Below are positions 414 through 63,915 of a stretch of 64,000 nucleotides of DNA, one piece after another. The translations under genes and the position numbers were made by a program. The notes under the pieces are model-generated. The model saw only the letters and a program-made list of their open reading frames with translations, did not search any database and was not told the DNA's origin. The DNA lies in IMG/VR virus record IMGVR_UViG_3300032132_000750; one strand, 5' to 3'. The DNA comes from an uncultured virus (IMG/VR IMGVR_UViG_3300032132_000750). Lineage: Duplodnaviria; Heunggongvirae; Uroviricota; Caudoviricetes. The stretch's first letter is position 1. Every line of letters starts with the position of its first letter.

Positions 414-554
414 CTAGAAGCGTTGAACGTAGAACTTTGAGCACAGGTCAGGGATTCTTCTCATCAACCCCCCGGTGCAAAACTCTGATTTCTAGTTTTT
501 AAGTCTCTAAGCAGAGACGCTAGAAGCTCAAAGTTCTACGTTCAGCGCTTTTAG
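414..554 (+). repeat. Heptad inverted-repeat element 1 (29-bp arms 414-442 / 526-554, structured interior)
   Basis: CTAGAAGCGTTGAACGTAGAACTTTGAGC pairs with GCTCAAAGTTCTACGTTCAGCGCTTTTAG; both mismatches are G:U on +; interior stems GGTCAGGG/CTCTGATT and GTCTCT-AAGC-AGAGAC. Confidence 0.85.
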
Positions 555-556
555 CA

Positions 557-781
557 ATGAGTATTATGACATTCGAAGAAATCGACCCGACTAAAAAGTA
601 TACTCTCTCCAAAAAAGTAGAGTTTTACAATCATCGATCCGGCACCTTTGCCCACTTCAATGAGGGGCTGGTTGTGTCTGTTCTGCGAAAAAACGATGGT
701 TACGCCTCTAAAACCATCATTGTTAAGTTTGCTGACGGAGATATAGAAGTTTTCCCTCATCAACTTTCGCCAATAACTTAG
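557..781 (+). CDS. Hypothetical protein (74 aa)
   Basis: ORF begins 2 nt after element 1; plausible composition. Confidence 0.6.
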   Translation: MSIMTFEEIDPTKKYTLSKKVEFYNHRSGTFAHFNEGLVVSVLRKNDGYASKTIIVKFADGDIEVFPHQLSPIT

Positions 782-914
782 TCCATAAACAAGCGGCCCT
801 GAGCCTTGCCTTTACGCACTTGTTGGTGTAAATTACTTCTTCAAATACGTGCCACCCTTTCCTGCAAAATAGTAAAACAGCGGAACAAGCTGTTTATTGG
901 GATATATTACCTTA

Positions 915-2393
915 ATGACAGAACAGAAATCTGAACCAGTAGGTTCATTTGTAATTAACCTCGATGATGAGGAAGAATCTCCTCAAACCGGAGCCCCGGC
1001 AAAGCCGTCCTACACTCCGATTGAGCTTACTACTGAAATAGAATGGGCGCGCAGCGGAACTAAGTTCTACGCTCGTCCCTGTGCTGACAAGTTCCCTAAA
1101 CTGCCTGGCGGCGTTTATCGCTTTGTTAGTCCACCACAGCAACCTTGGTTTCTTGAGCGTAGCGCAGACCGTTTTGAATTCCCTTTCAAAGTCTATAACG
1201 CTAGCGGAGATGTCATTGCGCGAGTTTGTACGCACTGGGCGGCTAACGGCGGCAGTCTTGGTGTTCTCGCTAATGGTTTGCGAGGTGCTGGTAAGTCCGT
1301 TACTGTCAAACTGATCGCAAACCGTCTTCGTGATGAGATGGATATACCCATCCTTGTTGTAAGGCAGCCGATTCCACTCGATGTTATCTTTGATAACATT
1401 CAGCAACATATGATTGTGATTTTCGACGAATTCGAAAAATCACACGACCCAAACCTCTATCCAGGCGCTCAGCAAAGATTGCTTAGCACCATCGATGGAA
1501 TGAGTCGCTCAGAGTTTAACCGGTTGCTGTTGTTCACTACAAACAATGTCAACATTAACGAAAACTTCAAGGATCGGCCTAGTCGAATTCACTATAAGTT
1601 TGAGTTCAGTCGCGTCTCTGATGAAATCATTGAAGGCTTGATTAACGATACTTTGCCAGAGCACTTGATGCACTTTAAGGAAGACATCTTCCAGTGCCTC
1701 AATACTCGCGCAATATGCACAATCGACATTGTTCGGTCTATTATCAAGGAAGTTGTTACTTTCGAGGAAAGCCCGATTCAATTCGAGGAAATGCTCAACA
1801 TCGCCAAGAGCCAGCCTCCGTCATTCACGGTTTCTATTGTGGAGCCCGAAACAAACGGGGAAATCACCCGACTCAGCTCATTTTGGCGTCTGTCTCGCCA
1901 CGAAGAGCGCTACGCTCCGCTGCTTAGCGGCAATAAGCGAAGTCTGGCTGATTTCAAGGATAAGGGCAAGGAAGTTAGCGTTTCTTCAAGCAGTTGGGGT
2001 GGCGACATAACCTTGAAGCTGCTTGAACCTTGCGAGGAAGATGGTTTCTTCCTGGCTAACGTTAAGGTTCCTACGTCAAAGACCTTCTTCGACAAGTATG
2101 ATTTCTTGTATGAGCAATCATTCTGGCTCGATGATCGTCCTGATGATTGGAGACCTCTTCCTTCCCCGGAACAGATTAAAACCGAGGAAAAACAAGAAGA
2201 CAATAAGGGGCTCAAACGACAACAAGTTTACGAACTCTTTAATGCTGGTCGCCACGGTAGAAAAACCCTTCATGGAACGGGTAAGCCGTCTGTCTATAAG
2301 ATCAAGATTGAACCTAACGCTGAGTTGCACGGACCTCTTCGAGCAACTTCCAGCGCTCTAACCGGGTTAAATGTAGACAAACTGGACAAGTAA
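915..2393 (+). CDS. AAA+ ATPase (phage-type) with unknown C-terminal domain
   Basis: Walker A GLRGAGKS, Walker B IVIFDEFEK, sensor TTN, DRPSRI arginine-finger-like motif; ATG at 915 chosen over TTG 897. Confidence 0.9.
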   Translation: MTEQKSEPVGSFVINLDDEEESPQTGAPAKPSYTPIELTTEIEWARSGTKFYARPCADKFPKLPGGVYRFVSPPQQPWFLERSADRFEFPFKVYNASGDVIARVCTHWAANGGSLGVLANGLRGAGKSVTVKLIANRLRDEMDIPILVVRQPIPLDVIFDNIQQHMIVIFDEFEKSHDPNLYPGAQQRLLSTIDGMSRSEFNRLLLFTTNNVNINENFKDRPSRIHYKFEFSRVSDEIIEGLINDTLPEHLMHFKEDIFQCLNTRAICTIDIVRSIIKEVVTFEESPIQFEEMLNIAKSQPPSFTVSIVEPETNGEITRLSSFWRLSRHEERYAPLLSGNKRSLADFKDKGKEVSVSSSSWGGDITLKLLEPCEEDGFFLANVKVPTSKTFFDKYDFLYEQSFWLDDRPDDWRPLPSPEQIKTEEKQEDNKGLKRQQVYELFNAGRHGRKTLHGTGKPSVYKIKIEPNAELHGPLRATSSALTGLNVDKLDK

Positions 2394-2403
2394 TCTCAAC
2401 AGT

Positions 2404-2443: not shown

Positions 2444-2464
2444 ATCCCTAAAAGGAAATATACA

Positions 2465-2842: not shown

Positions 2843-2848
2843 CACCTG

Positions 2849-4203: not shown

Positions 4204-5106
4204 ATGCCTCCTGTTCCTTATCGTCAACTCATTTTCCAATGTGAGAATCTGAGTTGCCTCCATTTTGAGCCCTGCGGAGAGGCTCATCTGTGGGCTAGCT
4301 ATTTGCGCCGAGAAGAGGTACAAAAGGACCATCATCTCTGCAATAAAATAGAGCCCGCTGATGGGCGCGCATATCATCGACTATCTGATGGTCGCCATGC
4401 GCGAATACTCCATACTGCTCATGGCCTAGACGCAAAAGCTTATGGGCTTACAGGGTTAAAAGTTGCTCTTTTGCTTCATGCAAAGGATTGCAACAAAATT
4501 GATACTCCAGCAATGATAATCGGTTATGATCCTCGGATTGTCCGTCTCATCAAACTTTTGGAGCGAGGCACTGCTATGGATTATAAATTTCATAGTGATA
4601 TGCCTTTCTGGAAAAATAAGGGGGATGTCGCTTTTAGGCAAGGCTTCTACTCGGCTTTTTCTGATATTAATTACAAAATCAGATATGTAAAAGAAAACTT
4701 ACTTCAATACATTAAGGATGAGCTACAGAAAGCTTTAACCCGCTGGGAATCTTACCAACAACAAAGTAAAGATAACCATCAAGAATGGGTAATTCAATCC
4801 AGAACTCTGCCTCGTGATAAAGTAGATAACAAACTACTCTACTCAAATCCTTGGATGATGGAAGCTAGTGGTAAAATCAGAGCCTTTAGGCGTATTATTC
4901 GTCTTATAGAAACCCCTGATCGCGATGTAGTAATGGCGGAAGCTAAAGACTATATCGATGATTTGGCAAACAAGCTAAGACACAAAATCCAAGGATGGGG
5001 CGTTAAAGACTGGAAACCAGTCTATGCTAAATCCTATACAGGTTCCTGGCATTATCCGAAGGGCCACTCACAAATAAAATCCTCTAGATGGTCTTATCCT
5101 CTCTAA
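4204..5106 (+). CDS. Hypothetical protein
   Basis: Long ORF filling the space between neighbours; start uncertain. Confidence 0.65.
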   Translation: MPPVPYRQLIFQCENLSCLHFEPCGEAHLWASYLRREEVQKDHHLCNKIEPADGRAYHRLSDGRHARILHTAHGLDAKAYGLTGLKVALLLHAKDCNKIDTPAMIIGYDPRIVRLIKLLERGTAMDYKFHSDMPFWKNKGDVAFRQGFYSAFSDINYKIRYVKENLLQYIKDELQKALTRWESYQQQSKDNHQEWVIQSRTLPRDKVDNKLLYSNPWMMEASGKIRAFRRIIRLIETPDRDVVMAEAKDYIDDLANKLRHKIQGWGVKDWKPVYAKSYTGSWHYPKGHSQIKSSRWSYPL

Positions 5107-9570: not shown

Positions 9571-10434
9571 GTGAAGCGAGCATTAGGAGATAGTGTCTTT
9601 GACAGGAGAGGAGCGGGAAATCTATCAGAACGAGCATACATTGCTCTGATTAGCTTTTTCACTCTATACGGGTTGGCTGTAACCGGCTTTTTGGCTGTCT
9701 TTACGGCCCATCTCTGGGGACCGATTAACACTCCGACCAAAGATCGTGTTGCAGTAGAAGCTTCGGCTAACCCCGGAGGCAGCACAACAACGCCACAACC
9801 CGAGGCCACACAGGTTGAAAACCCTAAAAAGGCTGAAAACCCTGACGAAAAAGAAAAATCCATGTTGGCTCCAACCAACAGCCCAACACTGGGAATGGGA
9901 GCCTTTCTTCTTCTAGGTTTTGTGATTCCTCTTCTAGGCATCTTCATTGCACTAGGTAGTGATAAGCCGATTATCAGTTTTCTGGGCTACAATATGGTGG
10001 TTGTCGGCTTCGGAATGATTCTGGGACCAACTATCTTTATGTATAGTGCCGACATCGTTCTGATGGCACTAGCTACAACCTTCCTACTTACTCTGGGAAT
10101 GAGTGCAATCGGCATTGCTTATCCCAAGAGCTTGGCGCATTGGGGTGGTTGGCTGTTTGGAATCTTGTTGGCTGTAATTGTTGGGCAATTCACCGGCATC
10201 TTTATGTCGATGATTGGTTATCCCGGCGTAGCACAGGTGATGGACTCTCCCGTCATGCACATTCTGATCAGCATTCTGTTCTGTGCTTACATCATCTATG
10301 ACTGGAATCGCGCTTTGCGTATTCCTAAGACAGTTGATAATGCTATTGATACAGCGGTGGCGCTGTACCTGGATATTATCAATCTGTTCATTCATATTCT
10401 GAGCCTTTATGGAAAGTCTCAGAATAGTTCCTAA
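9571..10434 (+). CDS. Bax inhibitor-1 / YccA family membrane protein with hydrophilic insertion
   Basis: About 7 hydrophobic segments; LFCAYIIYD and AVALYLDIINLF signatures. Confidence 0.9.
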   Translation: MKRALGDSVFDRRGAGNLSERAYIALISFFTLYGLAVTGFLAVFTAHLWGPINTPTKDRVAVEASANPGGSTTTPQPEATQVENPKKAENPDEKEKSMLAPTNSPTLGMGAFLLLGFVIPLLGIFIALGSDKPIISFLGYNMVVVGFGMILGPTIFMYSADIVLMALATTFLLTLGMSAIGIAYPKSLAHWGGWLFGILLAVIVGQFTGIFMSMIGYPGVAQVMDSPVMHILISILFCAYIIYDWNRALRIPKTVDNAIDTAVALYLDIINLFIHILSLYGKSQNSS

Positions 10435-11910: not shown

Positions 11911-12913
11911 TGAGCAAAAGCGCACCCGCACTTTCGTTGACCTTGGTAGTAGGGAGCCTTCTGGTTGTTGTTGCCATCATCTACGGAATGGAAGCATCAC
12001 ATCGGAAGGATATTGTCACAGGTAGTGGGATGCCTCCGGGTGCCACTAACATCGTGGACCTAGGCCAAAGCTGGTATGAGTTCGATTACAAGGGCTCTCG
12101 TTATCTCTATCACGCATACGGTGCGGGAGAGACTGCTCGTGAGTCGATGGTTCGACTCGAAATCAAGCCAGAGCAGCAGTAATGGACATCTCGATTGGAC
12201 GCATTATCGATCAAGCTCGTGAGTTTGTCGAGGAATGTGACATTGAGAACTACGGCAACATCGGTGAGATGGCTCAGGAAGCCGAACGTCATCGACAGAA
12301 GCTCTCCGAGTTGCTTGAGCAGCTTGACAAAGCTAGCATAGAGTCAGAAAAGTGCCTAGGATGCACTATAACTCTTCGTGGTGTAGATTTCACGGCAGGT
12401 AATTGTCTTATTTGTCATGCCGTAATCTCACAACATCCTTGCAAAACCTGCGAAAAAGACACCCCATGTAGTGTTTTCTGCTTCGCCTGCAAAAAGCTAA
12501 AATAATGTTCGCTGTTCTACTCGAACATTACGGGGATTTCGATATTCCGGTGGCAGATAGTCTCTGGATTCACGAAGGTATGGAAAAGAAAGCCTCCTTC
12601 GACATCAAAACACTGGGGGACTTTGGTGATGACAAAACACCAAACAACCTCATCAAAGCACTGAAGGCGCATGGTTTTAAGCGCCACCCACACACCACCG
12701 TTATTTATGGAGGAAACTACTGATGCTCTTCTTGCTGGGCCTTTTTATCACTATACTAGGGCTCCCGGCTTGTCTTGTGGCAGGAGTTTTCTGTTGGCGT
12801 GCAAACAGAGAAGCAGATTTGATTCGGGAAGGTGCGCGGCCCGCGCAATACCCAATAACATCAAGAATCTGGGCTAAGATTAGGCCCTGGAGAATGAAGG
12901 GGAGGTGGCAAGT

Positions 12914-13483
12914 ATGAGGCTCAACTTGAGCGAGAATGCTGCAAAGCAGATGGCAGAGCAATCTGCCAAAAAGGAAACCGATGTTTCGATTTCCAAGGCT
13001 GAGGTAGAGGCTGCCCGCAACGCGAAGCGTGAAGCGAAGCTTGTTGCGAAGCAGGCCAAGGTTGACGCTCGCAATCGTGCAAAGCGGGCTGACGTGGATT
13101 TGCAAACCCAGCTCGATGCATACCGCTCTGCGGAGGGTGATATTGCGGCTGCCACCAAGCAGATGCAGAAAGATCAAGACGAGTACAACGCACGTTGTGC
13201 GAAGAAGCTTGCAGCCCTAAAGTTGCTTCAACGCGAACTGGAGCGCGTCCACGAGGAAGCTAAGAGCGCCGAGGCCGCGCTAGCAGCGACCCGTGCGGAT
13301 GTCCCCAAGAGCGTCAGCGGAGCGCAGGAGCGAACGCAAAAACTCAATACGCGGCGCGAAGCGTTGGCTGAGTGCTTTGCGGGGAACGAAGCGGCTTGGA
13401 ACGGAGAAAATCTGACCAAGAGCTACAAGGGCAAGCGCAATACGGGTTTGCGTCGCACAGTAAAGGGGATCATCAATGGCTAA
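12914..13483 (+). CDS. Ala/Lys-rich coiled-coil protein
   Basis: GGAGG RBS before ATG 12914; helical composition; visibly GC-richer codons. Confidence 0.75.
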   Translation: MRLNLSENAAKQMAEQSAKKETDVSISKAEVEAARNAKREAKLVAKQAKVDARNRAKRADVDLQTQLDAYRSAEGDIAAATKQMQKDQDEYNARCAKKLAALKLLQRELERVHEEAKSAEAALAATRADVPKSVSGAQERTQKLNTRREALAECFAGNEAAWNGENLTKSYKGKRNTGLRRTVKGIING

Positions 13484-13814
13484 GAATACGAGCATCAAGC
13501 TCTGGCAAGCACTCCTAGGTTGTGGGGGCATCTTGCTCTTGCTGGGGTTCCTGGGTTGGAATTTCTTCATCCCAGCGCAAAGCGGAATGTTCAGTCGGTG
13601 GACGGGCAAGGCAGTAGAGCTGCCTGTCCCTGATGATTGCGTTCGCATCATCAACTTTGGCAAGACGGGTAGCACCAAGTATCTCAGCTACATCAACTCC
13701 GATGGGGAGGCGATCATGCACGAGTACAGCGACCACGGCGTCTTGGAGGCCACCTACAAGCTTTCAGGAGCGACCTACAGCCCTGTGACACTCGCGAAAG
13801 AGGATTCTAAGTAG
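13476..13814 (+). CDS. Membrane-anchored hypothetical protein
   Basis: N-terminal hydrophobic helix. Confidence 0.7.
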   Translation: MAKNTSIKLWQALLGCGGILLLLGFLGWNFFIPAQSGMFSRWTGKAVELPVPDDCVRIINFGKTGSTKYLSYINSDGEAIMHEYSDHGVLEATYKLSGATYSPVTLAKEDSK

Positions 13815-13818
13815 GAAA

Positions 13819-13995
13819 GCTCTCCGTTCTACGTTCTACGCCTGCATCATTAACTTGATGCGGGCTTAGAGCAGTGATGCGCATCGGGTTAATGGTAGCT
13901 CTACGATGTGCGGATGTTGAGGGTTGCTACGGCCTGAAACATAGGTAGATTGGCCCTTTGTGGTCGGACTATCGCTTTTCGGTACGCTGGAAAGC
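13819..13995 (+). ncRNA. Candidate structured RNA with reversed heptads upstream of tRNA-Ser
   Basis: CGTTCTA x2, hairpin GCCTGCATCA/TGATGCGGGC, further stems GGGTTAAT/ATTGGCCC and GCTTTTCGG/CTGGAAAGC. Confidence 0.45.
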
Positions 13996-13999
13996 ACTA

Positions 14000-14084
14000 G
14001 GAAGGTTGGCAGAGCGGTCGAATGCACTGGTTTTGAAAACCAGCGTCTCGCAAGGGACCGGGGGTTCAAATCCCTCACCTTCCG
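14000..14084 (+). tRNA. tRNA-Ser (anticodon TGA)
   Basis: Acceptor GGAAGGT/ACCTTCC, discriminator G, anticodon arm CTGGT-TTTGAAA-ACCAG, long variable arm, GGTTCAAATCC; no encoded CCA. Confidence 0.95.
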
Positions 14085-14950
14085 TTTACATCGTCAGGAA
14101 TAATCATGCTCCAATTTCGTCTTGTTCCCGGTAACAGTATGGACAAGCCCATTGAGTATTCTCTGGGAGATAAGCCCCCTCACAGACACGGCTTTCCCTT
14201 GGACATCGCAAACATTGCGGCAATCCGCTATGTCACGGCGGACGGTGATGAACTGGAATACATCATCAAGCACATGATCGGTCTGCCTGGCATTAAAGGC
14301 ATAATCTTCAAGAGCGATGTTAAAGGCATTGATTGGTCCCAACCGATCAATACCACAGAGAAAGTTACCTGGACCGGTGACCATGCAAGTTTTATCCTCG
14401 CCAACTTTCCAGGAATAATTGAATGAGCACAGCATCAGAAGATTTTGTAGCGCGCGTTATCAGCGGAGAAGAAGCTCTTGAGCTTCCTCCGATGAAGATC
14501 CAGCTTGCTCCGGGTCAAAGATTGATTGTAGGATTCTACGATCCGGCCTGTAATCGCGAACCCAACGGATGGAGTCCTCCCGAGGATCACGATATCGATG
14601 GTGAATTCACCATCGAATATCGGCCCGATGCAATCGTCGTATCAGCAGATATGCCTGACGATGAGCACCGCACAGGAATCATCTATCAGGCCAGCAATGG
14701 TTGCGATGACTCTGACGCTCCAGACGAAGCTTTGGAGGAAGAAATCGATCCAAGGTACGGGCGATGAAAATCGTTGTTACGGCAGGTGAGGTCAATGACA
14801 AAGGCAATTGGGAAGCCTTCTGTGAGTTGAAAAGCATCGGTTATTGGGCAATGAACGAAGGCCAGCTAGAGAGTTCTGAGGAATTCACTTTGACCTTTGA
14901 AGAAGCTAAAAAGATTGGGTTGCGCTACGCAATCCGTAACGAATTAGGCG

Positions 14951-15397
14951 ATGATTGAATCATTTAGTGGCGAATATCGCTGGCTAAGTAACTTTTGGCC
15001 TGTTGAGATTGAGTGGATGGGGCTTGATTTCCCCTCGCTAGAGCACGGTTACGTCGCCAGTAAATGTGCATCTTTTGAAGATGTATACGCAATCCTTCAC
15101 GATGAAAAAGGTAACCAGCGAGAACTAACCGGAGGCCAAGTTAAGCGGTTTGGCCGAAAAATCAAAATACGAGGTGATTGGGACGGGATGCGTGTTCAAA
15201 CAATGCGCAGTCTTCTTACCCTAAAGTTTCAAGATCCAGAGCTTCGTAAAAAGCTGATTGCAACCGGAGATGAGGAAATCATCGAAGGAAACAGGTGGCA
15301 CGATTCGTTTTGGGGGCAATGTTCCTGCGAAACATGTCCTCCTGGCGAAAACAACCTAGGGAAGTTGCTGATGCAGCTTCGTAAAGAGTTACAATGA
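14951..15397 (+). CDS. NADAR / YbiA-like family protein
   Basis: FSGEYRWLSNFWP, KF...L...LIATG...IIEGNRWHDSFWG...GENNLGKLLMQLR. Confidence 0.92.
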   Translation: MIESFSGEYRWLSNFWPVEIEWMGLDFPSLEHGYVASKCASFEDVYAILHDEKGNQRELTGGQVKRFGRKIKIRGDWDGMRVQTMRSLLTLKFQDPELRKKLIATGDEEIIEGNRWHDSFWGQCSCETCPPGENNLGKLLMQLRKELQ

Positions 15398-16307
15398 CCT
15401 ATACTGCCGCTCTCCTTGTCGGAGTTATCATCGGATACGCAGCTAACAGCAATACTGTACAAGACGCTGTGGAGCGTGGGATCGACAGGATGAGCCTGTG
15501 GATCTGGCGAACCAAACAAAAGAGTAAGGAAAATAGTGGAACACTGGAAGCCTGAAAAAGCCGCAGTAGATTATACGGATGAGGAGTTGAAGGGAACTCC
15601 TCTCTATGGGCTGATTGAAAAGGCCGATGCTACCTCTCCCGGTAAGTGTTTACCACTTAATTTGCCAGAAATCGAGGCTTTAAGGCTGGCTCGTGAGTCC
15701 CTCGATGAGCTTCGTCGTATGATGGGTCACAATAATGATCCAGAGCTTCCTCCTGATGACATCAAGCTGGCTAAGATTAGCGGTATATGAGTTGGAAAGT
15801 AGCTGCTCTCAAGCTACAACTTCAAGAAATACACCCATCTTGTACTCATTTTGAGTTAACAGATGATGGGATTGAAATACATTTCATAGACGGCAATCCA
15901 ATGGAAGCTGGGGAGTTTGTCTGGGGTTCACCCACCAGAGAATCCCTAGATGAGCTAGAAGATTTACTCCGAGGAGACAACCATGAGTGAAAAGCCACCC
16001 CTCACCGTTCGTATCAAACACAATCTCTGGCCGGTTGTCGGTGATTGCACTTTGATGGGGCTTTATGCTGAAGCCCGCCTGGCCGATACTCGCGGAGAGA
16101 ACAAATTCGATCACGACAAGCTATTGTTGGAGATTGAACAGACCTCGATGGGTTATCGCAGGGATCATGGTCCTGCGGAAATGATCGTCACAGAGTTTGT
16201 TCCCCTGTGTCTCATCAGAGACGTGCTGAGCATGACCAAGAAGCATAACATCGACATCCAAATCGAGGTTATCGAGATCCACACCGAACCCAACTTCGAG
16301 CGATAAG

Positions 16308-16463
16308 ATGAAATTCAAAGAAAGGCGCAGAAACGTGGAATGTTGTGTTGGATGCGATACCTGCGGAACTCACTGTGTTGTTGAGTGTCCCAGCGGAGAC
16401 GGTGTAGTTTGTAGCGCCGAGGGTGACTCTTACGCAAACCAGAACATCCCCGAAGGTAAGTAA
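16308..16463 (+). CDS. Small Cys-rich protein (51 aa, absent from ORF track)
   Basis: Read manually: MKFKERRRNVECCVGCDTCGTHCVVECPSGDGVVCSAEGDSYANQNIPEGK; its TAA overlaps the next ATG. Confidence 0.55.
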   Translation: MKFKERRRNVECCVGCDTCGTHCVVECPSGDGVVCSAEGDSYANQNIPEGK

Positions 16464-17416
16464 TGCCAGGTAAAATCGACAGTGTAGGCATTAAAAAGTT
16501 GCTTGCTGAGAACACTGGAGTTGCTGCCTCAAAGTGGAGTCGATGGACCAAGTATAAGGTCGGCTCTCCGAGCGATATGAAGCCTCCCAAGGATAAAAGC
16601 CTGTCCTTCTGTAAAGGGATCAAGTTCGGGGAGCATTTTCCGCATTTGCTAGGAGTCTGGGTTCGTCTTTATGGGGCACCTTCAGATCAAGCAGTGACCG
16701 GAGTTGCGGTTTTTGAGAAAGACGGCATTGTCCTAGATATTCTGGGAATCACAGAAACGAAGAATGATTGCGGGGCTCCCGAGCCAGGCCGATTGCGTGA
16801 TCCAGAAGGTTGGGAAAGCTGGTATGGACACGCCTGCGAAAACGGGTTAGACAAGGATGATGATCCTCCGGCAGCAAAATCCAATGCGAAGCAGATTGCC
16901 TACAATGTCATCACTCAGATTGGCTATGTAGAAAGCTCCCATCCATCGTTGCTGTGGTGGACTCATGTAGGAGATGTGGGTAAATCAGGAAAACAGCTTG
17001 CTGAAGAGTTGCGGCAGCTATTTATTACTTTCTACAAAGAGGATTTTATACAAAAAGATTGCTGCAAAGACAAGAAACCTACCAAAAAAAATAAATACTG
17101 CCCTACATGCGGCGGCCCCCTAGGCAATCGGAATCCTTTTGGAAACCCACATCAAGGTCGTGTTGAAAATGCCATCCGAGATTTGCATCTAGGATGTATA
17201 GATTCCATCATGGGCGATTGTCGTCGTGATGACGGTAGGGATTTGGATGATTATTTCAAAGAAAAGGGTTGGGAGTTTTGGCATGGACCAGGTGTTACGG
17301 GTTCTTTAGTTGAAATTAATCAGTTTGACGAATACATGAAATCAGACCCGTGCTGGGGTGATGATCAACACAACTATTACGGCGGTATCTCCGAGGGTAC
17401 TGTTGCTTTTGCTTAA
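16463..17416 (+). CDS. Hypothetical protein with zinc ribbon
   Basis: 317-aa ORF, CC...YCPTCG. Confidence 0.7.
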   Translation: MPGKIDSVGIKKLLAENTGVAASKWSRWTKYKVGSPSDMKPPKDKSLSFCKGIKFGEHFPHLLGVWVRLYGAPSDQAVTGVAVFEKDGIVLDILGITETKNDCGAPEPGRLRDPEGWESWYGHACENGLDKDDDPPAAKSNAKQIAYNVITQIGYVESSHPSLLWWTHVGDVGKSGKQLAEELRQLFITFYKEDFIQKDCCKDKKPTKKNKYCPTCGGPLGNRNPFGNPHQGRVENAIRDLHLGCIDSIMGDCRRDDGRDLDDYFKEKGWEFWHGPGVTGSLVEINQFDEYMKSDPCWGDDQHNYYGGISEGTVAFA

Positions 17417-17438
17417 GATGAAGGTATCGCGCTAGCAC

Positions 17439-17467
17439 TTGAAACTTTCATCAATGTTGCGTATACT
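17439..17467 (+). promoter_or_regulatory. Leaderless-type promoter
   Basis: TTGAAA-17 nt-TATACT, ATG 6 nt after the -10 box, no RBS. Confidence 0.7.
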
Positions 17468-17473
17468 TAGATC

Positions 17474-18223
17474 ATGGGAAGAGTGCCAGGATATCTAGGA
17501 AATACCAGTTATTGGTTTGGAGAACTAGGCTTTAGTAGTTCCCGTAGTAGACGTAGACGCGATGAGCGTCGTCAACAGCAACTACAACAACAGCAGCAAC
17601 AATTAGCTAAGCAGCAAGCGAGCAATATCCAAAAACAAATAAAAGTACAACAGAGATTAGCACAACCAGCTTTTAATAAAGGCCAGCAACAAGCACAACA
17701 GAGAATAGCGCAACAACGCCAACAACAAATGGCTGCACAAGCAAAGGTTGTCGCATCACGAGCCGCACCCCCAAAACCTACTGCGGCCCCTCTGATTATG
17801 CCAACAGTAGCCCCAGCCCCATCGGGAATGACTTTACAACAAGAAGAAGCTATGTTGATGGCGCAGCTTAATGCGGGTGCAAGTGAGGCCCCAATTTCTG
17901 ATCCCGCAATGGACGCTGGTGGTGGGGGTGGTGGTGATTATACCCCATCATCTGGTGGTGAAGCTAGTATGACGCCGGAAGAGATGGAAGAACAACGTTC
18001 TATAGAAGCAGAAAGGGTAGCTGCCGAGCTTGCTGCTAAATTCCCTGGAAAGACTATTACACAAGCTGAAATCCAGGCTGAGGTAGAGACACGTCTCCCG
18101 CAAGCTCCTGTTTTCCCAAGCCAACGTCAAGGCCCTGCGCGACAAGGCTTTTTTGGGAAAGTTCTTGACGCACTGTTCGGGCCTCCATCGCCCCCACAAC
18201 CTTTAGGTTACTATCGTTTTTAG
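17474..18223 (+). CDS. RPGYLG-tag family protein, Gln/Pro/Ala-rich
   Basis: N-term MGRVPGYLGNTSYWFGELG, poly-Q tract, C-term PLGYYRF. Confidence 0.8.
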   Translation: MGRVPGYLGNTSYWFGELGFSSSRSRRRRDERRQQQLQQQQQQLAKQQASNIQKQIKVQQRLAQPAFNKGQQQAQQRIAQQRQQQMAAQAKVVASRAAPPKPTAAPLIMPTVAPAPSGMTLQQEEAMLMAQLNAGASEAPISDPAMDAGGGGGGDYTPSSGGEASMTPEEMEEQRSIEAERVAAELAAKFPGKTITQAEIQAEVETRLPQAPVFPSQRQGPARQGFFGKVLDALFGPPSPPQPLGYYRF

Positions 18224-18694
18224 GCCAAGAGTGGCCCGCTTTGACTACAAGTCAACCCTATACAGAGAACACAATTTGGAATGTCGCAAAAACCTAAACG
18301 GAAGAAGCCAGAAGAAAATTCGGGCTGCCTAAGCGGCCTAATGATGGCCTTTATTCTAGTTTTCTTTGTTCCAATCATGTGGTTGGCAAAGAAAATGGAT
18401 ACAGGGGCTCCCAACGCCGGTCTTGGCTCTGGTATGCTTGCTATCATGCTAATAATGCTTGGAACCGGAATAACAATTACTGCTCTCGTGATTGGGGCAG
18501 GGGTTGTTGCCTACAAAGCGCTATGAGAGACTTGAAGTAGAAACAACATCTGACGGAGAGGCGTAGAGGCCCTCTTTCGGCTAAAAATCCGAAAGAAGGC
18601 TTGATCCTGGCCTCTGGTCGGGTATCATACGGTGGGCCTTGACTCTTGGCCCCTCATACTTTTTAGACCGGCAGTTTTTTGCCACGAGGAAATA

Positions 18695-19057
18695 ATGTTT
18701 GCAAAGCGAGTCCAACCCTGGCAGCTTGGTTTTACCGACTTCGAGATGGAAATTCTTCTCAAGATCATGGATGGGGAAGACCTCACCAGTGCAGAAGAGC
18801 GTCGTGCTGACAAGATGCAGCAAACGATGAAGACGCAATACGAGCGTCTTCGCGTCAAGCGAAGCGGAGACTACGCCCAAGAGCGTTACGATGAGCATGA
18901 TCGCAGCGATGATCGTCATCTTCCGGCTCCTCGTGGTGATAGGAAGCTCTACCAAGTGCCGGATGAGGCCATTGCCGCAAAGCCTGCTCCGAAGCAGCTT
19001 CCTGCCCCGAAGGCTGCAAAGCCCCCTCGCGGTAGGAGAGCAGTTCGCACAAGCTAA
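18695..19057 (+). CDS. Hypothetical basic protein
   Basis: GAGGA RBS; upstream TTGATC-16-TATCAT promoter. Confidence 0.7.
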   Translation: MFAKRVQPWQLGFTDFEMEILLKIMDGEDLTSAEERRADKMQQTMKTQYERLRVKRSGDYAQERYDEHDRSDDRHLPAPRGDRKLYQVPDEAIAAKPAPKQLPAPKAAKPPRGRRAVRTS

Positions 19058-19063
19058 CACACA

Positions 19064-19156
19064 GCGCAGAACGTAGGGCATCGAGCGATGTTTCACAATT
19101 GCCCAACAACCCCTTAAAAGTAAAGCGAACATCGCTCGATGTTCCACGTTCAGCGC
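19064..19156 (+). repeat. Heptad inverted-repeat element 2 (30-bp arms)
   Basis: GCGCAGAACGTAGGGCATCGAGCGATGTTT / GAACATCGCTCGATGTTCCACGTTCAGCGC; 3 G:U and 2 true mismatches. Confidence 0.75.
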
Positions 19157-21690: not shown

Positions 21691-21693
21691 ACC

Positions 21694-40455: not shown

Positions 40456-40609
40456 TAGAACGTAGAACGTAGAGCACTGGACCGGGTCCGGGATATTATT
40501 CACGACTGCACTCTCTAATCAAGGGAGCATCGCGCACTATACTATTGCAAACACGATGGAGTAAGTCGCCCCGTGAGCAAAAGTTCAGTGCTCTGCGTTC
40601 TACGTTCTA
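40456..40609 (+). repeat. Heptad inverted-repeat element 3 (27-bp arms)
   Basis: TAGAACGTAGAACGTAGAGCACTGGAC / GTTCAGTGCTCTGCGTTCTACGTTCTA; both mismatches G:U. Confidence 0.85.
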
Positions 40610-44044: not shown

Positions 44045-44060
44045 AGAGTAGACTGTTACT

Positions 44061-45293: not shown

Positions 45294-46078
45294 TTTTAAT
45301 TAGAAACAGTATTGAAGGCTATCCGGTAGCTATTGCTGCTAACCGAGATGAGTATATTGATCGTCCCAGCGAGGATGTAAAAGAACGTGATGGTGGTATT
45401 TTAGCCCCCAAAGACTCTAAGCGCGGCGGAACTTGGATTGGTGTCAACCAATACGGGGTTTTTGCTGGCCTAACCAACCGCAATGGGGTAATAGGCAAGC
45501 CCGGTAAAATCAGTCGCGGGGACTTGCCTAATCTTGCGTTGCAGCACAAAACTGCGAAAGAAGCCTTCGTTGCAATCCGTGACACTTACCCCACAGGAAA
45601 AGATTTTAACGGGTTCTATCTTGTTATAGCTGACAAGGATAGTGCCTATCTGTTTGGTGGGGATGGGCTGCACTTAACTCATCGTGAAGTTACCGAGAAC
45701 GTTCTAGCAGTAACTAACCGAGGTGTTGGAACTGTTGGTGACGTAGGAAAGCCGGAAACAACCCGGAGAATCAGTCATCTCATTACCGCGTGGCAAGGTG
45801 CTCAGTATTCTCTGAGCGGCCAATACCAAGTTCCGGCTGATCGTAAAGAAGACGAGGTAATCACTGTTCTTAAGAACCTGCTTCACATTCATGATGAAGA
45901 TCGTCATGGCACTTGTGTTAATGAGCCCGAGAACAACTACGGAACCAAAAGTTCCTCTATCATCCTCTTAAATGAGAAGAAAGAGGAATGGATGTATGCC
46001 CATCGTGAGCGCCAAGGTAATAAGCATATCTGTGATTATGACTTTGTGTATCACTACTGGAGCTTAGGCGATTGCTGA
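45281..46078 (+). CDS. NRDE / TANGO2 family protein
   Basis: N-terminal MC, AANRDE, GGTWIGVN, SRG, YGTKSS. Confidence 0.92.
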   Translation: MCTIVLIRNSIEGYPVAIAANRDEYIDRPSEDVKERDGGILAPKDSKRGGTWIGVNQYGVFAGLTNRNGVIGKPGKISRGDLPNLALQHKTAKEAFVAIRDTYPTGKDFNGFYLVIADKDSAYLFGGDGLHLTHREVTENVLAVTNRGVGTVGDVGKPETTRRISHLITAWQGAQYSLSGQYQVPADRKEDEVITVLKNLLHIHDEDRHGTCVNEPENNYGTKSSSIILLNEKKEEWMYAHRERQGNKHICDYDFVYHYWSLGDC

Positions 46079-51759: not shown

Positions 51760-52128
51760 TTATTTATCTTTACGATCACGCCCGTAGTCAATAAAGATCT
51801 CTTCGCCTCGCCTTATGGGGCGAGTAGCGATATAGTCAAGTAATCGTTTAGGGTCGTGACTATTGATCTTTACGTAAGCGCTTGGGTTTTTGCTGGTGTT
51901 ATACATTGATCCATTACCAAAAACTACTACTAAGTGCTGCGGCTTCAGGTGGGATTCGAATACGTAAAACTGCAGAATGTTTTCATGAGCATAAACAGCC
52001 TTTTCATGCATCTCTACGAAAGGGCATGTTTCCAGCAACTCACCGGCTCTAATATCTTTATTTGCAAAGACGCCATACCCTGCTTCGGGTATTTTACTTT
52101 TTCCAACTCTTACTTTTGAACAATGCAT
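51760..52128 (-). CDS. SET-domain protein (lysine methyltransferase-like)
   Basis: GYGVFA..DI..GE, SMYNTS (NHS variant), ATRPIRRGEEIFIDYG. Confidence 0.92.
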   Translation of the reverse strand: MHCSKVRVGKSKIPEAGYGVFANKDIRAGELLETCPFVEMHEKAVYAHENILQFYVFESHLKPQHLVVVFGNGSMYNTSKNPSAYVKINSHDPKRLLDYIATRPIRRGEEIFIDYGRDRKDK

Positions 52129-60235: not shown

Positions 60236-61669
60236 TCAATGGGATCGATTATCTTTTCCGTATGCCATAGTTCGTGGCACAACATATTTATCAAATTCGA
60301 ATCCGAAACCTAGCTCTATTGCGGCCTGTTTTAGGGTTCCACCAGATGCATGCGCTAATTTAGCAACTTTAGCTGCATTATCATAGCCAATATGGGGAGC
60401 CAGCACAGTCACCAACATTAAAGAGTTCTCTACGTTGGCTTCAATCGTCTCAAGATTTGGTTCAATACCTATAACGCATTTATTAGCAAACAGTCGCATA
60501 CTATCGCTAAGTAAAGCAATACTTCGCATCAGATTATGAATTATTAAGGGTTTGAATACATTTAATTCAAACTGTCCTTGGCTGGCTGCGAAACCGACAG
60601 CAGCATCATTGCCCATAACCTCGATAGCAACCATAGTTACCTGTTCACATTGCGTCGGATTAACTTTGCCCGGCATAATACTGCTACCAGGCTCATTCAT
60701 GGGAAGAATTAGTTCTCCCAAACCGCAGCGAGGACCAGAAGCTAGCAATCGAATATCATTCGCTATCTTCATTAGATTAGCCGCTAAGCTCTTTAGAGCC
60801 CCGCTAAGAAGCACTTCTGCATCGTGGCTAGTCAGGGCATGAAAGTTATTAGGATGGGGAGTAAAGCCATAGTTTTTAGGTGTTAGCTTATTAAGTTGCT
60901 TGCAAACATCACCAGACCACGCAAATCCCGTATTAAGTCCGGTTCCTACGGCTGTCCCACCAATAGCAATCTCCTGAAGATGGGTTGCTTTGACGTGATA
61001 TATGTGCGCGGCGGATTTATTGATCATTGTCAGATAGCCGCCGAACTCTTGGCCCAAGAAGAGAGGTACAGCATCCTGTAAGTGAGTACGTCCTACCTTG
61101 ACAATATCCTTAAACTGTACACTCTTATTATGTAAGGCCCCCTTAAGAGCACTAATAGCGGGAGTTAGTTGATTATCAATTGCCAATGTTAAAGCAATGC
61201 GCATTGCACTTGGAAAAGTGTCATTACTACTTTGGCGCATATTGACATCATCATTAGGATGAACCAACTTTTCTTTTCGAAAGTCTCCTCCCATTATCTC
61301 AGTGGCTCGATTAGCAATAACCTCGTTGAGATTCATGTTGGTCTGAGTGCCGCTACCTGTTTGCCAGACTTTCAAAGGGAAGTTGTCTAATAAGCTGCCG
61401 AAAATAATTTCATCGGCTGCCTGACAAATAGCATCTCTCTTTTCTTTGCTCAGAGGGTTTTTCTCGCGCAAGTAGACTCCGTAATCGTAATTGACTGTTG
61501 CGCACGCTTTTTTAAGATAGGCGTAAGCAATGATTAATCGATAGGGCATGGCCTCACCAAAACCACCGATATTGAAGTTGTGGACGCTACGTTGTGTTTG
61601 GGCTCCCCAATATCTATCATCAGGGACCTGGATTTCACCCAAGGAATCTTTTTCAGAACGTGTTTTCAT
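60236..61669 (-). CDS. fumC: Fumarate hydratase, class II
   Basis: YWGAQTQRS, WQTGSGTQTNMN, SSNDTFP, GRTHLQDA, signature GSSIMPGKVNPTQCE; start MKTRSEKDSLG at 61669. Confidence 0.97.
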   Translation of the reverse strand: MKTRSEKDSLGEIQVPDDRYWGAQTQRSVHNFNIGGFGEAMPYRLIIAYAYLKKACATVNYDYGVYLREKNPLSKEKRDAICQAADEIIFGSLLDNFPLKVWQTGSGTQTNMNLNEVIANRATEIMGGDFRKEKLVHPNDDVNMRQSSNDTFPSAMRIALTLAIDNQLTPAISALKGALHNKSVQFKDIVKVGRTHLQDAVPLFLGQEFGGYLTMINKSAAHIYHVKATHLQEIAIGGTAVGTGLNTGFAWSGDVCKQLNKLTPKNYGFTPHPNNFHALTSHDAEVLLSGALKSLAANLMKIANDIRLLASGPRCGLGELILPMNEPGSSIMPGKVNPTQCEQVTMVAIEVMGNDAAVGFAASQGQFELNVFKPLIIHNLMRSIALLSDSMRLFANKCVIGIEPNLETIEANVENSLMLVTVLAPHIGYDNAAKVAKLAHASGGTLKQAAIELGFGFEFDKYVVPRTMAYGKDNRSH

Positions 61670-61779
61670 AACATCCCTAGACCATATAGTTGCTACAGTA
61701 GCATAGCCTAAAATAGGATTTTGGCAAGATTCAACGAGGTTATTTGTAAAACTCTTTTTAATTATGATAAAATAGTGAA

Positions 61780-62883
61780 ATGAAGAATATTGGTTTCGGA
61801 GCCTACGACGGCTATGCATCACTGGGGTTTGGAGATTTCGGCAGCACAGGTTGCGGGCAAGTCGGAGAACTCTGTAAGGACAGAGTTAAAAAGGAAGATA
61901 TCCAAGAACTAATTGATCGTATCAACGATCACAAGTCTTGTGCGGAAAAAACTTCACAGAATGCTGCGCACCCTTGCTCATTCCATCGGCCATTAAAGAA
62001 AACTATCGAAAAAACCATAGATTTTATTGAACGATTAGCTCGTGAAGGCAATCGTCAAGCTGCGCAATATTTAACCCAGGCTGTTGATGAGATGGCTCAA
62101 CTTATTGGCTTGCCTAGTGGTGGGTATCAACGCCTAAGAAACGCAGGTACTGAGACAATATTAGATGCTGGTTTAGAGACTTGGAATGATGCTAAGTATG
62201 ACGAACTAAACAATTCAGCAGGTTGGATAGAGATGTCCAAGTACATGTATTATAGTGTGGGCAACCGCGATAGTGGTGGAGCCCTTAAATTTGTAGTATT
62301 AGCTAGAGATTCTATCCACTTCATGCGTAATATCACCCCAGCCGAAGATGCGCGTAGAGCAACCACTATCAAGCAGCTAATTGATGTAGGTAGGCGAGAC
62401 GCAGGCCAACTAGGCGTTGCACGAGCTACCTTACAAAAAGCCTGGATTACTGAAGCTACCCGCAAGGCATTGCAAACCCAACTTGATGACGCCTATAAGG
62501 GTGCGAAAGTTAAAAACCCAGATGCGAGCACTTTTTCACTTATCGGATCTGCTGTCTTTTCAATGTTTGCGCCGGAAGGTCAAGAAGATATTTTCATGGA
62601 AGCCGGGGGTCAAGCCGCCGACGACATAGCAGCCGGTGACCCATTGCGCTCAAAACGGGTGCAGAATATGTCCTGGTCGGACGTATATGATCCCGACACT
62701 ATTGACTACGGCGTTACCGGTGATCCTAAAGCGGCGGCAGCTCGCGGTAGAAAATTACGCGGTGAAGATTGCTTTACCTTTGACGTGAAATGCCAATATT
62801 CACGGAACAAGTTCAAGGTTTGGGCGGCTGCTATTGGTGTGGCTGGTTTAGCAGGATTATTACTCTACGGATGGGTAAAGTAA
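61780..62883 (+). CDS. FG/LG-motif protein with C-terminal TM anchor
   Basis: MKNIGFGAYDGYASLGFGDFG; C-terminal hydrophobic helix; TAAAAT 6 nt before ATG. Confidence 0.78.
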   Translation: MKNIGFGAYDGYASLGFGDFGSTGCGQVGELCKDRVKKEDIQELIDRINDHKSCAEKTSQNAAHPCSFHRPLKKTIEKTIDFIERLAREGNRQAAQYLTQAVDEMAQLIGLPSGGYQRLRNAGTETILDAGLETWNDAKYDELNNSAGWIEMSKYMYYSVGNRDSGGALKFVVLARDSIHFMRNITPAEDARRATTIKQLIDVGRRDAGQLGVARATLQKAWITEATRKALQTQLDDAYKGAKVKNPDASTFSLIGSAVFSMFAPEGQEDIFMEAGGQAADDIAAGDPLRSKRVQNMSWSDVYDPDTIDYGVTGDPKAAAARGRKLRGEDCFTFDVKCQYSRNKFKVWAAAIGVAGLAGLLLYGWVK

Positions 62884-63251
62884 TGAGAAGACCTGGATAT
62901 TTAGGTGATTTAGAAGATACATGGTTTGGCAATTTTAGTGGCCGAGGTCGTGCAAGAGGTAAATCAAGACGTATAGCAGGCAAGGGACCTACAACGGCAG
63001 AACACAAACAGCGGTGTTTGAAATGTTGTAAAGGTAACTCAAACAGAGGAATTCATTCGTGCCTTAATGTGAACAAGTGCCGTGCAAATGCTAAATACTG
63101 GTGTCAGGATTACAGTAAGAATAAGTGTAAGTCGTGTTGCAAGAAAAATACTCGCCGCAAAGTCAAACGATGCCTTGCGAAAAACGACTGTAAAAAAGGT
63201 CACAAAAAACACTGTGATCGGGCCAAGTATAAGGCCCTCCCTAAACGCTAG
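62883..63251 (+). CDS. RPGYLG-tag family protein, basic Cys-rich tandem repeat
   Basis: MRRPGYLGDLEDTWFGNFSG; two repeats CxxCCK..N......CL..N.C.......C. Confidence 0.8.
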   Translation: MRRPGYLGDLEDTWFGNFSGRGRARGKSRRIAGKGPTTAEHKQRCLKCCKGNSNRGIHSCLNVNKCRANAKYWCQDYSKNKCKSCCKKNTRRKVKRCLAKNDCKKGHKKHCDRAKYKALPKR

Positions 63252-63332
63252 CAACCCCTAGACTTACGGCTTAAATTGGTCCTTGCTAGTCTCCGGCCAG
63301 CGTGATACCTTGTAAGCTGTCAAGGGGAGTAT

Positions 63333-63812
63333 GTGGATAGGAGATTGCGAGAGGCTGAGCGTTTAGCTGTACAGGGAGATTTTACAGCTATTACCTTGCT
63401 TCGAGCAATGTACACAAAAACTGGCATCATCAGTAAAGCAATACACGTTAAATGCGCCTACAGCGGTCGCGGAGAAAAAGGATCTCTCCACGCTGTTGAT
63501 CCGTTTATGCCAGAAAATTATTCAAAACACCTATGTCATGGTCTCAACACAGTAGGAAATCCTTTTCTAGGCTTTCCTACCTGTAAACCTTGTATAAAGT
63601 TAGTTATTGCGGGACGGGTAGAGTTTCCAAACAAAAAAGCTACTATCAGGTTTCACGGAACAACGGGTCCTAAAATGCGGTTTAATGAGGAAACCCAAAA
63701 ATGGGGATGTCCTTGTAATGTCTGCGAAAATGTTCGTAAAACATGGAAACCTGCCATAGCTAAACTGCGCCTCACCTCAATGATGAGATTTCCGAGAGAG
63801 TGGAGAACGTAG
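63333..63812 (+). CDS. MDxxLRxLER-module protein
   Basis: MDRRLREAERLAVQGDFTAITLLRAMYTKTG; GGGGAG RBS. Confidence 0.72.
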   Translation: MDRRLREAERLAVQGDFTAITLLRAMYTKTGIISKAIHVKCAYSGRGEKGSLHAVDPFMPENYSKHLCHGLNTVGNPFLGFPTCKPCIKLVIAGRVEFPNKKATIRFHGTTGPKMRFNEETQKWGCPCNVCENVRKTWKPAIAKLRLTSMMRFPREWRT

Positions 63813-63915
63813 AGCGTTGAACATTGGGCTTAGTCTACCGAGATGCAGGTCTTGGTCTTCGTTCTTGCTTAGTGTGTTGCTAGGTGCTAAGCTCAATGTT
63901 CAACGTTCTGCGTTC
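63805..63915 (+). repeat. Heptad inverted-repeat element 4 (29-bp arms)
   Basis: GAACGTAGAGCGTTGAACATTGGGCTTAG / CTAAGCTCAATGTTCAACGTTCTGCGTTC; all 3 mismatches G:U; two interior hairpins. Confidence 0.85.

Follow-up and report, generated by a model that had tools for sequence, protein, structure and literature searches.

What are the four long hairpins, with arms built of tandem 7-nt units, that lie between genes in a 64,000-nt stretch of DNA from an uncultured Caudoviricetes virus (IMG/VR record IMGVR_UViG_3300032132_000750), and what becomes of them in the phage message? This stretch, the whole of the DNA that was analysed, is called the window. The hairpins, here E1 to E4, had been picked out in an earlier note written from the letters alone, which placed them in no named family and offered three roles: a processing stem that excises small cargo RNAs, retron-like ends, or single-strand recombination hairpins analogous to attC. 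The reading that we favour, at about even chances and by analogy with a bacterial element, is that they are inserts with heptamer arms but no gene of their own, which would be cut by RNase III within phage messages.

Four hairpins with paired heptad arms

An inverted-repeat listing of the window, with partners at most 250 nt apart, gave 15 pairs in all, and the four strongest were the elements already noticed for their long arms (27-29 nt, 86-93% complementary):

E1, 414..554, + strand: arms 414-442 and 526-554 (29 nt, 93% complementary), interior 443-525 (83 nt)
E2, 19064..19156, + strand: arms 19064-19092 and 19128-19156 (29 nt, 86% complementary), interior 19093-19127 (35 nt)
E3, 40456..40609, + strand: arms 40456-40482 and 40583-40609 (27 nt, 93% complementary), interior 40483-40582 (100 nt)
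E4, 63805..63915, + strand: arms 63805-63833 and 63887-63915 (29 nt, 90% complementary), interior 63834-63886 (53 nt)

The arm unit is a tandem heptad, T(A/T)G(A/G)(A/G)C-N. The 5′ arm of E1 reads C TAGAAGC GTTGAAC GTAGAAC TTTGAGC, that of E3 TAGAACG TAGAACG TAGAGCA CTGGAC and that of E4 GAACG TAGAGCG TTGAACA TTGGGCT TAG; E2 is the least regular copy. The heptads that the earlier note described occur far more often than by chance: three tandem TWGRRCN units with up to two mismatches matched 19 times in the window against 0.68 expected, and GAACGTAGRRC with at most one mismatch 21 times against 2.45 expected, the largest shuffle giving 7. A scan blind to the period found period-7 runs only at E3, at E4, at a smaller hairpin at 13818 (E5, described below) and at two unrelated spots, and no second family of heptad words in the window.

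Each arm also matches its own partner. When the arms were compared without gaps, 103 of the 114 positions formed Watson-Crick pairs: 27 in E1 with two G:U, 25 in E2 with two G:U, one A:C and one A:A, 25 in E3 with two G:U, and 26 in E4 with three G:U. The 11 exceptions were thus nine G:U on the + strand, one A:C and one A:A (9 v 1, binomial p = 0.021). The earlier count of 12 mismatches, ten of them G:U, was slightly too high, and the excess of G:U that it reported is real. The + strand is the strand of the genes that flank the elements. We conclude that E1 to E4 are real elements of 7-nt periodicity with each arm paired to its own partner, and that the G:U excess, small as the number of sites is, fits selection on the folded + single strand.

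Folding was compared with 100 mononucleotide shuffles. Minimum free energies of the + strand were -69.4, -44.4, -72.8 and -64.6 kcal/mol for E1, E2, E3 and E4 (z -6.7 to -10.4), against -60.9, -48.8, -67.0 and -39.6 kcal/mol for the - strand, so that the + fold is the more stable one in E1, E3 and E4 and the less stable one in E2. The interiors (35-100 nt) had been described as unrelated, with two sub-stems each in E1 and E4, and both points held: folding gave the sub-stems, and the four interiors showed no similarity beyond that of shuffles. Rfam gave no match at the elements, whether the gathering score or a cut-off of E 1 was applied, and two tRNAs as its sole matches in the window. With interiors that are unrelated and unmatched, the suggestion that they are functional small-RNA cargo did not stand. 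Promoter and terminator consensus scans in or beside E1 and E3 returned nothing above shuffles that fitted the elements.

Long inverted arms around a variable interior are also what the ends of a retron (a1/a2) or attC-like single-strand recombination sites would offer, and, with the steady positive GC skew taken as a sign of the leading strand, the + strand would serve as template for lagging-strand synthesis. GTTGAAC and GTTCAAC even happen to fit what we take to be the attC core consensus (GTTRRRY / RYYYAAC). Nevertheless, we consider such an origin extremely improbable, and this suggestion of the earlier note found no support. Among the 117 window open reading frames (ORFs) that were searched against Pfam there was no reverse transcriptase, no tyrosine or other recombinase and no transposase. 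Moreover, the stems are near-perfect and show no bulges in the arm comparison, whereas attC is defined by extrahelical bases; the order in the window (GTTGAAC 5′, GTTCAAC 3′) is the reverse of that which we take for attC; and some 20 kb separates one element from the next, where attC sites would stand at each boundary between cassettes. A double-stranded RNA (dsRNA)-binding protein, which the earlier note had thought worth looking for, did not appear in the same search: neither RNase III nor an obvious RNA-binding family was present among these ORFs.

Position between stop and start codons

The elements sit among protein-coding ORFs, and the claims that each begins at or within 7 nt of an upstream stop codon and that three of them end 2-10 nt ahead of a start were both borne out. 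The adjoining ORFs are:

310..417, + strand: upstream of E1, 35 aa, hydrophobic
557..781, + strand: downstream of E1, 74 aa
18632..19057, + strand: upstream of E2, 141 aa
40201..40452, + strand: upstream of E3, 83 aa
40620..41018, + strand: downstream of E3, 132 aa from ATG 40620
63333..63812, + strand: upstream of E4, 159 aa
63926..64000, + strand: start part of the ORF downstream of E4, which continues past the end of the window

The stop lies inside the 5′ arm in E1 (TAG 415-417, in the first heptad) and E4 (TAG 63810-63812), 3 nt ahead of the arm in E3 (TGA 40450-40452, within a degenerate heptad CTGAGCT) and 6 nt ahead in E2 (TAA 19055-19057). Because the 5′ side carries TAG- or TGA-bearing units, the upstream frame terminates at or inside the arm. 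On the other side, ATG 557 follows the 3′ arm of E1 after 2 nt, with no Shine-Dalgarno (SD) sequence outside the stem; ATG 40620 follows that of E3 after 10 nt, with AAGGA in the gap; and ATG 63926 follows that of E4 after 10 nt, with GGGAG directly after the arm. The ATG found 10 nt past E2 opens only about 10 codons, and no gene adjoins this element downstream. The 5′ arm of E3 has TAG in all three frames (40456, 40463 and 40470); as a general rule, three-frame stops were rejected, failing for the arms of E1, E2 and E4.

This layout is what translational coupling would require, in which the stem would bring the upstream stop and the downstream start side by side and a terminating ribosome would melt the outer stem and free the start. 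Coupling by unmasking of a start is established, for example between the coat and replicase genes of MS2. The idea is consistent with the stop at, inside or just ahead of the 5′ arm and the start 2-10 nt past the 3′ arm in E1, E3 and E4, with the lack of an SD outside the stem of E1, and with several bacterial relatives (e.g. L201, L207 and L215) whose starts stand 0-2 nt past the last heptad without an SD. However, any insertion into a very short spacer gives the same layout, the SD is outside the stem in E3 and E4, E2 has no downstream gene, and some related hairpins stand in 5′ leaders or between divergent genes. We therefore regard coupling as quite improbable, although it could hold alongside cleavage by RNase III.

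The heptad motif in other phages and in bacteria

Searching for more heptad arms, as the earlier note had advised, proved productive: besides E5 in the window itself, arrays and hairpins were found in phages and in many bacterial phyla. A pattern scan with one arm gave 60 loci in viral contigs. In a phage contig of 60% G+C with terminase, portal and protease (G001), two hairpins of the form [GTAGAAC]n, interior, [GTTCTAC]n follow the window's own order, and in both copies the upstream stop is in the 5′ arm and GGGGGG, an SD, and ATG come directly past the 3′ arm. Other phages carry unpaired sense arrays of TTGAACN or TAGAACN among the portal, scaffold-position, major-head and following genes, directly ahead of the SD. 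Scans with longer gaps added two phage lineages (the L352 group and L355/L365).

With one genome taken per species, TWGAACN in three tandem units occurred at no fewer than 125 loci, and the taxa among the matches listed include Acidobacteriota, Desulfobacterales, Geomonas, Prevotella, Flavobacteriales, Cyanobacteria, Verrucomicrobiota, Patescibacteria and others. Five whole genomes contained 150-468 pattern matches each, compared with 0-58 for the reversed-pattern control. Arms usually have 3-7 units, and the usual order of a pair is [NGTTCAA]n ... [TTGAACN]n. Viral contigs scanned at equal settings likewise gave 119 loci with GTTCWA...TWGAAC against 12 with the opposite, GAAC-first order, and on inspection only one of these 12, that of G001, was a true heptad hairpin of that order.

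In two acidobacterial genomes, 27 hairpins could be classified by their neighbours, gene directions beside related loci being taken from ORF heuristics: 21 lie between co-directional, three between divergent and three between convergent genes. A stop triplet falls across the first bases of the element in 12 of the 21 co-directional cases and within 8 nt in seven more, the frames not having been checked singly.

Some smaller observations belong here. At one junction shared by two related phages, L062 (12337-12371) has five units of TTGAACN and L063 (reverse strand, ~4290-4330) four units of CTGA[AT]AG; the 7-nt register and the stops are retained and the word is replaced. In one group of viral contigs, several loci (L240, L247, L249, L264, L269, L270, L298 and others) have TTGAAC hairpins beside G+C-rich hairpins of the form GCCCC-TTCG-GGGGC and beside arrays of a second word, (T/C)AGAGCA, with loops (GTTAAAACCTCTCTTTCCCCAAC or its complement) that recur both ways round. 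In an acidobacterial genome, G006, an Acido-Lenti-1 RNA match (L190:138-183, 50.3 bits against a gathering score of 37) has a heptad hairpin some 320 nt away. At L197 (G006:C213), the hairpin directly follows an apparent tRNA 3′ end (…GGTTCGAGTCCCGCCATCCCTACC), which indicates that such elements also adjoin RNA genes. Among twenty related loci, Rfam gave only sub-threshold matches to miRNA precursors, on both strands.

Heptad arms around PF05635 genes

The same arms were found around a protein-coding gene. In genome G006, the interval between [GTTCAAA]4 and [TTTGAAC]4 encodes a PF05635 protein (L204:561-965, - strand; E 5e-35), with a weak bAvd-like match as well (E 6e-4, below the cut-off). 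PF05635 genes number 3-10 in each of the five heptad-rich genomes and are present in one of 14 control genomes. Period-7 runs occupy both flanks in 14 of 25 bacterial PF05635 genes, every gene having its own word. In IMG/VR, whose records can contain host flanks, we identified 62 distinct PF05635-like genes, with period-7 runs on both sides in 19, on one side in 16 and on neither in 27; in these counts and in the bacterial ones, the period-7 detector was strict, and degenerate arms are undercounted. The words were inverted in 17 of the 19 two-sided viral cassettes. At periods 5, 6, 8 and 9, by comparison, the counts of genes with runs on both sides were 0, 0, 1 and 0.

The viral cassettes L411 and L412 carry GTTCAAC...GTTGAAC, the word family of the window. 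With the arms named by the direction of the PF05635 gene, 11 of the 19 cassettes have a 5′ arm that closes every frame with a stop, and four have such a 3′ arm. Typical 5′ words of the cassettes (GTAGGGA, GTAGGCT, TAGGGTG and TAGTCTG) resemble the window's GTAGAAC, GTAGAGC and GTAGGGC, and this polarity of stops makes the arm order of the window the usual one for a cassette.

From these comparisons we propose that E1 to E4, together with E5, are probably gene-less members of a widespread class of heptamer-armed inserts whose other members are the PF05635 (Avd-like) cassettes. The assignment, which we hold to be fairly firm, draws on the overall build, the length of the stem, the 7-nt register, the family of words, the polarity of the arms and the placement of a hairpin between stop and start. 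The loop of a full-size member contains a small gene for a four-helix bundle (PF05635, '23S rRNA intervening-sequence protein', Avd-like), and such members occur in many bacterial phyla and in viral contigs.

A candidate RNase III processing stem

An element of this kind has been studied experimentally. The 23S rRNA of Coxiella burnetii contains an intervening sequence (IVS), a 428-nt selfish element with the S23p ORF; RNase III cuts its 28-bp terminal stem midway, where the first repeat begins, its 5′ region contains tandem heptamers, GACAGAT, in a strain-dependent number, and the excised RNA decays fast (passages on the IVS in PMC4990558). Of the options raised in the earlier note, the processing stem is the only one with such a studied relative, and the Coxiella cleavage favours it, the support being one of analogy.

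On this model, an element would be transcribed within a polycistronic message of the + strand, and its arms would pair into a near-perfect dsRNA stem of 27-33 bp. Host RNase III would cut through the paired arms, just as the Coxiella IVS, likewise armed with heptamers, is cut. The cut would free the interior, which would then be degraded, and would split the message at the cistron boundary, with residual half-stems staying at the new ends; copy number within the arms would change by slippage. RNase III in general needs about two turns of dsRNA. This requirement, the Coxiella precedent and the G:U excess on the + strand are our reasons for the model, and we rate excision by RNase III from a polycistronic message at slightly under even chances.

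Function or selfish spread

Several results weigh against the view that the hairpins are gene-less inserts cut by RNase III. Within the window, the G:U excess depends on 10 informative sites only, and E2 is more stable as the - strand (-48.8 against -44.4 kcal/mol) and has no adjoining downstream gene. In the wider family stem stability has no strand bias: of 18 viral hairpins the sense fold was better in nine and the antisense fold in nine, and 21 bacterial hairpins were divided 11 to 10 between the strands. Such a balance argues against selection acting generally on one strand of the RNA and agrees with an origin at the DNA level or by selfish spread. Hence, the proposal of the earlier note that selection acts on a folded single strand agrees with the few G:U sites of the window and does not extend to the relatives. 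No PF05635 gene is present in the window, either among the 117 ORFs searched with Pfam or among 697 six-frame ORFs searched with a custom hidden Markov model (best E 0.55), for which reason the elements are called gene-less copies. Interior peptides scored about 0 bits against PF05635, and five heptad-bearing viral records also have no such gene. What links the elements to the cassettes is accordingly a common build and word; homologous interiors are no part of it. The word TWGAAC itself occurs at only two of 26 PF05635 genes in the five genomes, and 27 of the 62 viral PF05635-like genes have no heptad run by the criterion used. Lastly, for eight metagenome relatives of the ATPase encoded by a neighbouring gene (the best with 47% amino-acid identity), the 4-kb flanks held no heptad arrays or long inverted repeats.

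Could the hairpins be selfish or neutral DNA? Slippage-prone heptad repeats, inverted by fold-back copying or spread by copy-and-paste, would be harmless between genes and their RNA hairpin functionless, and with a stop in the unit no number of copies would harm the upstream frame. We hold this to be a real possibility, though a doubtful one. In most prokaryote genomes, heptanucleotide repeats outnumber every other kind of long simple repeat (Mrazek 2007, cited in passages of PMC4679880 and PMC4692102). In the related phages G002 and G003, which are 83-87% identical around the sites, corresponding junctions hold different numbers of units (7 v 5 and 5 v 6), and at one junction the words themselves differ (TTGAACN v CTGA[AT]AG). 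One loop sequence is common to nine of 20 hairpin loci in genome G006, in either orientation, which points to copy-and-paste. The absence of strand bias in the wider family and the neighbour-gene orientations of the 27 acidobacterial hairpins, which are close to genomic proportions, are in line with selfish DNA as well. In contrast, free drift after an inverted duplication predicts about equal G:U and A:C and more transversions, and the arms in the window have nine G:U, one A:C and one transversion. The interiors in the window are unrelated, so the elements there were not copied recently from a single master. They also lie flush between stop and start, and in 12 of 21 bacterial cases a stop triplet covers the first bases of the element, again with frames not checked singly. 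Selfish DNA is compatible with the same origin as processing by RNase III and differs from it only in denying a function.

The specific flanking of PF05635 genes by period-7 arrays, not by periods 5, 6, 8 or 9, raises another explanation, namely that the arrays are read by an oligomeric protein. The 7-nt register would then be a binding code, with one subunit per heptad in a ring or filament; the candidate would be a PF05635/Avd-like protein acting in trans, from the host or from outside the window, either on DNA in insertion or recombination or on RNA in regulation. Each cassette has its own word, as for a pair of protein and site, 3-7 units per arm are usual, and the PF05635 protein of L204 has the weak, below-cut-off bAvd-like match mentioned above (E 6e-4). 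bAvd assembles into pentamers, and heptads, tandem as well as inverted, are bound by the omega repressor of pSM19035. However, neither the window nor the five heptad-bearing viral records encode PF05635 or another candidate binder; genomes with 40-200 hairpins of one word have that word at only two of 26 PF05635 genes; and the arms in the window are degenerate in word and yet paired, which suits a structure better than a fixed sequence code. We find such a protein code unlikely; like coupling, it could operate alongside cleavage by RNase III.

A few further candidates were tried and rejected. The interiors as decayed PF05635 genes were ruled out, no signal being found. HutP-type repeats, which we take to be UAG-N4, do not agree with a unit whose TAG varies at the A (T[AT]G), and the HutP family is missing among the window ORFs. 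If GAAC...CGT were the -35 and -10 elements of an extracytoplasmic-function sigma factor, as we take these to be, the 7k-1 spacing would misfit the 16-17 nt expected, and the arrays abut the SD and leave no room for a transcript start. For heptad operators of the omega repressor type, or heptamers like those which we understand P1 parS to have, no ribbon-helix-helix or ParB family was found in the window, and the idea is retained only as part of the protein code above.

Relation to known elements

Among known elements, the hairpins are closest in form to two groups, and the earlier statement that no named family could be recognised gives way to a placement beside both: the PF05635/IVS cassettes and the bacterial heptanucleotide repeats (PMC4679880, PMC4692102 and PMC2700814, in the parts that concern such repeats). 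Like the ORF-bearing IVS of Coxiella, as far as its description goes in PMC4990558, they have long terminal inverted repeats (27-29 nt in the window, ~28 bp in the IVS), tandem heptamers in an arm, a variable interior, which is dispensable in the IVS, and a site inside a longer transcript, which is proposed for the window. PF05635, the protein of the IVS family, is also found inside arms of the window's word family (L204, L411 and L412). Unlike an IVS in the strict sense, which lies in helix 9, 25 or 45 of 23S rRNA, they stand between phage protein-coding genes with no rRNA helix, and the window contains no rRNA; they also have no PF05635 gene and their interiors measure only 35-100 nt. Cleavage by RNase III is demonstrated for the Coxiella IVS and would apply to the window elements by analogy.

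Several families of bacterial heptanucleotide repeats resemble the arms. TAACTGA repeats stand just ahead of start codons in Beggiatoaceae, Cyanobacteria and Bacteroidetes, by a vehicle that the relevant passages of PMC4679880 describe as not known; in sections of PMC4692102, GGGAATC arrays of Xanthomonas include inverted pairs, and GGGGAYT of Nostoc and the STRR repeats of Calothrix are cited as further heptads. With these repeats, as far as the sources describe them, the elements in the window share a 7-nt unit in tandem runs of two to seven or more, an intergenic site that is often directly before a start, stop-bearing units (TAA and TGA in TAACTGA; TAG or TGA in the window) and a patchy distribution across phyla with no known vehicle. 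Intergenic tandem 7-nt units whose copy number varies in relatives, the mark of such simple repeats, were found in the arrays of the window and in the comparison of G002 with G003. Unlike the bacterial repeats, the arrays in the window have another word and are paired into long stems around an interior, in a phage. In open-access papers and preprints, no TTGAAC/TAGAAC repeat and no heptamer hairpin at phage operon junctions was named; the tandem strings appeared only as primers.

Geobacter metallireducens has dozens of paired inverted tandem repeats of 7-9 nt, with no known role, according to the part of PMC2700814 that describes them. Its classes 1-3, with three to five tandem short repeats in opposite-strand pairs at variable distance, are similar to the elements in the window; they differ in their words (GTTGCTYN, TCTCCGTS and MTYCTGA) and are read, without a test, as sites for IHF/HU. 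In that part of the paper, where they are called 'global regulator binding sites', no link to PF05635 or to RNA is drawn.

As regards better known hairpins, several features recur. Near-identical copies with a common interior, the feature of miniature inverted-repeat transposable elements and REPINs, are absent from the window and present in the bacterial genome G006. REP, BIME and REPIN sequences are, like the window elements, dispersed intergenic hairpin repeats in transcribed spacers, with GTAG in the unit; REPs, in turn, are single imperfect palindromes tied to RAYT transposases, not tandem heptads. Neither a RAYT nor any other transposase had a match among the 117 window ORFs. The RNase III sites between the early genes of T7 also separate cistrons in the polycistronic message of a phage, as is proposed for the window, but their stems are shorter and contain an internal loop, they lack a 7-nt period, and no interior of 30-100 nt is cut out of them.

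Implications for heptanucleotide repeats

Three decades on, heptanucleotide repeats have no accepted function or means of spread, according to passages in PMC4679880 and PMC4692102. The window presents their hairpin form in a large phage, exactly at cistron boundaries, and the comparisons made here connect its heptad word with the PF05635 'intervening-sequence' cassettes of bacteria and of viral contigs. If the hairpins are RNase III sites, the repeats would gain a testable role, the processing of messages at operon junctions; phages would offer a route to the patchy distribution across phyla; and, in phage genomes that have not been annotated, the hairpins would be a simple marker of how operons are laid out. 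Should they be selfish DNA and nothing more, they would still make up a widespread class of hairpin, as yet without a name, that moves or expands. A bolder and distinctly unlikely extension is that phages are the missing vehicle of the bacterial repeats (STRR, TAACTGA, TTGAAC and others). Cassettes and gene-less hairpins would ride in phages as RNase III sites and seed the patchy families, and a ring of Avd-like PF05635 protein, supplied in trans, would read the 7-nt register and place the element between stop and start.

The fifth hairpin, in-gene runs and the setting of the window

The smaller hairpin in the window lies just past the stop of the ORF 13476-13814 and 120 nt ahead of a tRNA-Ser gene (14000-14084):

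E5, 13818..13877, + strand: GTTCTAC GTTCTAC and a G+C-rich inner stem, pairing with ...TTAGAGCAG

It is the first of five consecutive hairpins in the 190-nt spacer 13812-14000 (-75.5 kcal/mol, z -3.7), which may be a structured tRNA leader or a small RNA. Heptad-like runs were also seen inside a gene: GAGGGCG TAGAGCG TTGGACC at 34305-34331 (+ strand) and the complement of TTGAACG TAGGGCG TTAAGC at 34932-34958 (- strand) both fall within the 5′-3′ exonuclease ORF 34136-35029, about 600 nt apart. They keep the arm order of E1 to E4 but pair poorly with each other, and could be due to chance or to a decayed in-gene element. G+C content is 0.49-0.50 over 12000-24000, where E2 and E5 lie, against 0.42-0.45 in the rest of the window.

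The window appears to be a segment of a large marine phage. The one sequencing run listed as containing the sequence, looked up with 36000-45900, is a marine metagenome DNA run, possibly its source, and no RNA run was listed. Its ORFs are dense, small and overlapping, 107 of the 137 chosen ORFs are on the + strand, and there are two tRNAs. No near DNA match was found among GenBank phages, protein matches there are distant (<60% identity), and the FHA-Ser/Thr kinase has no relative in IMG/VR. The Pfam search of the 117 ORFs matched sigma-70 region 2, class II aminoacyl-tRNA synthetase, FHA-Ser/Thr kinase, 5′-3′ exonuclease, PTH2, SET, TANGO2, Bax1-I and a full aspartase/fumarase-type lyase. SET, PTH2, TANGO2, Bax1-I, the FHA-Ser/Thr kinase and the aspartase/fumarase-type lyase make a gene set that is unusual for a phage, at six loci:

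51760-52128 (- strand), 23122-23601, 45281-46078, 9571-10434, 41565-42842 and 60236-61822 (- strand)

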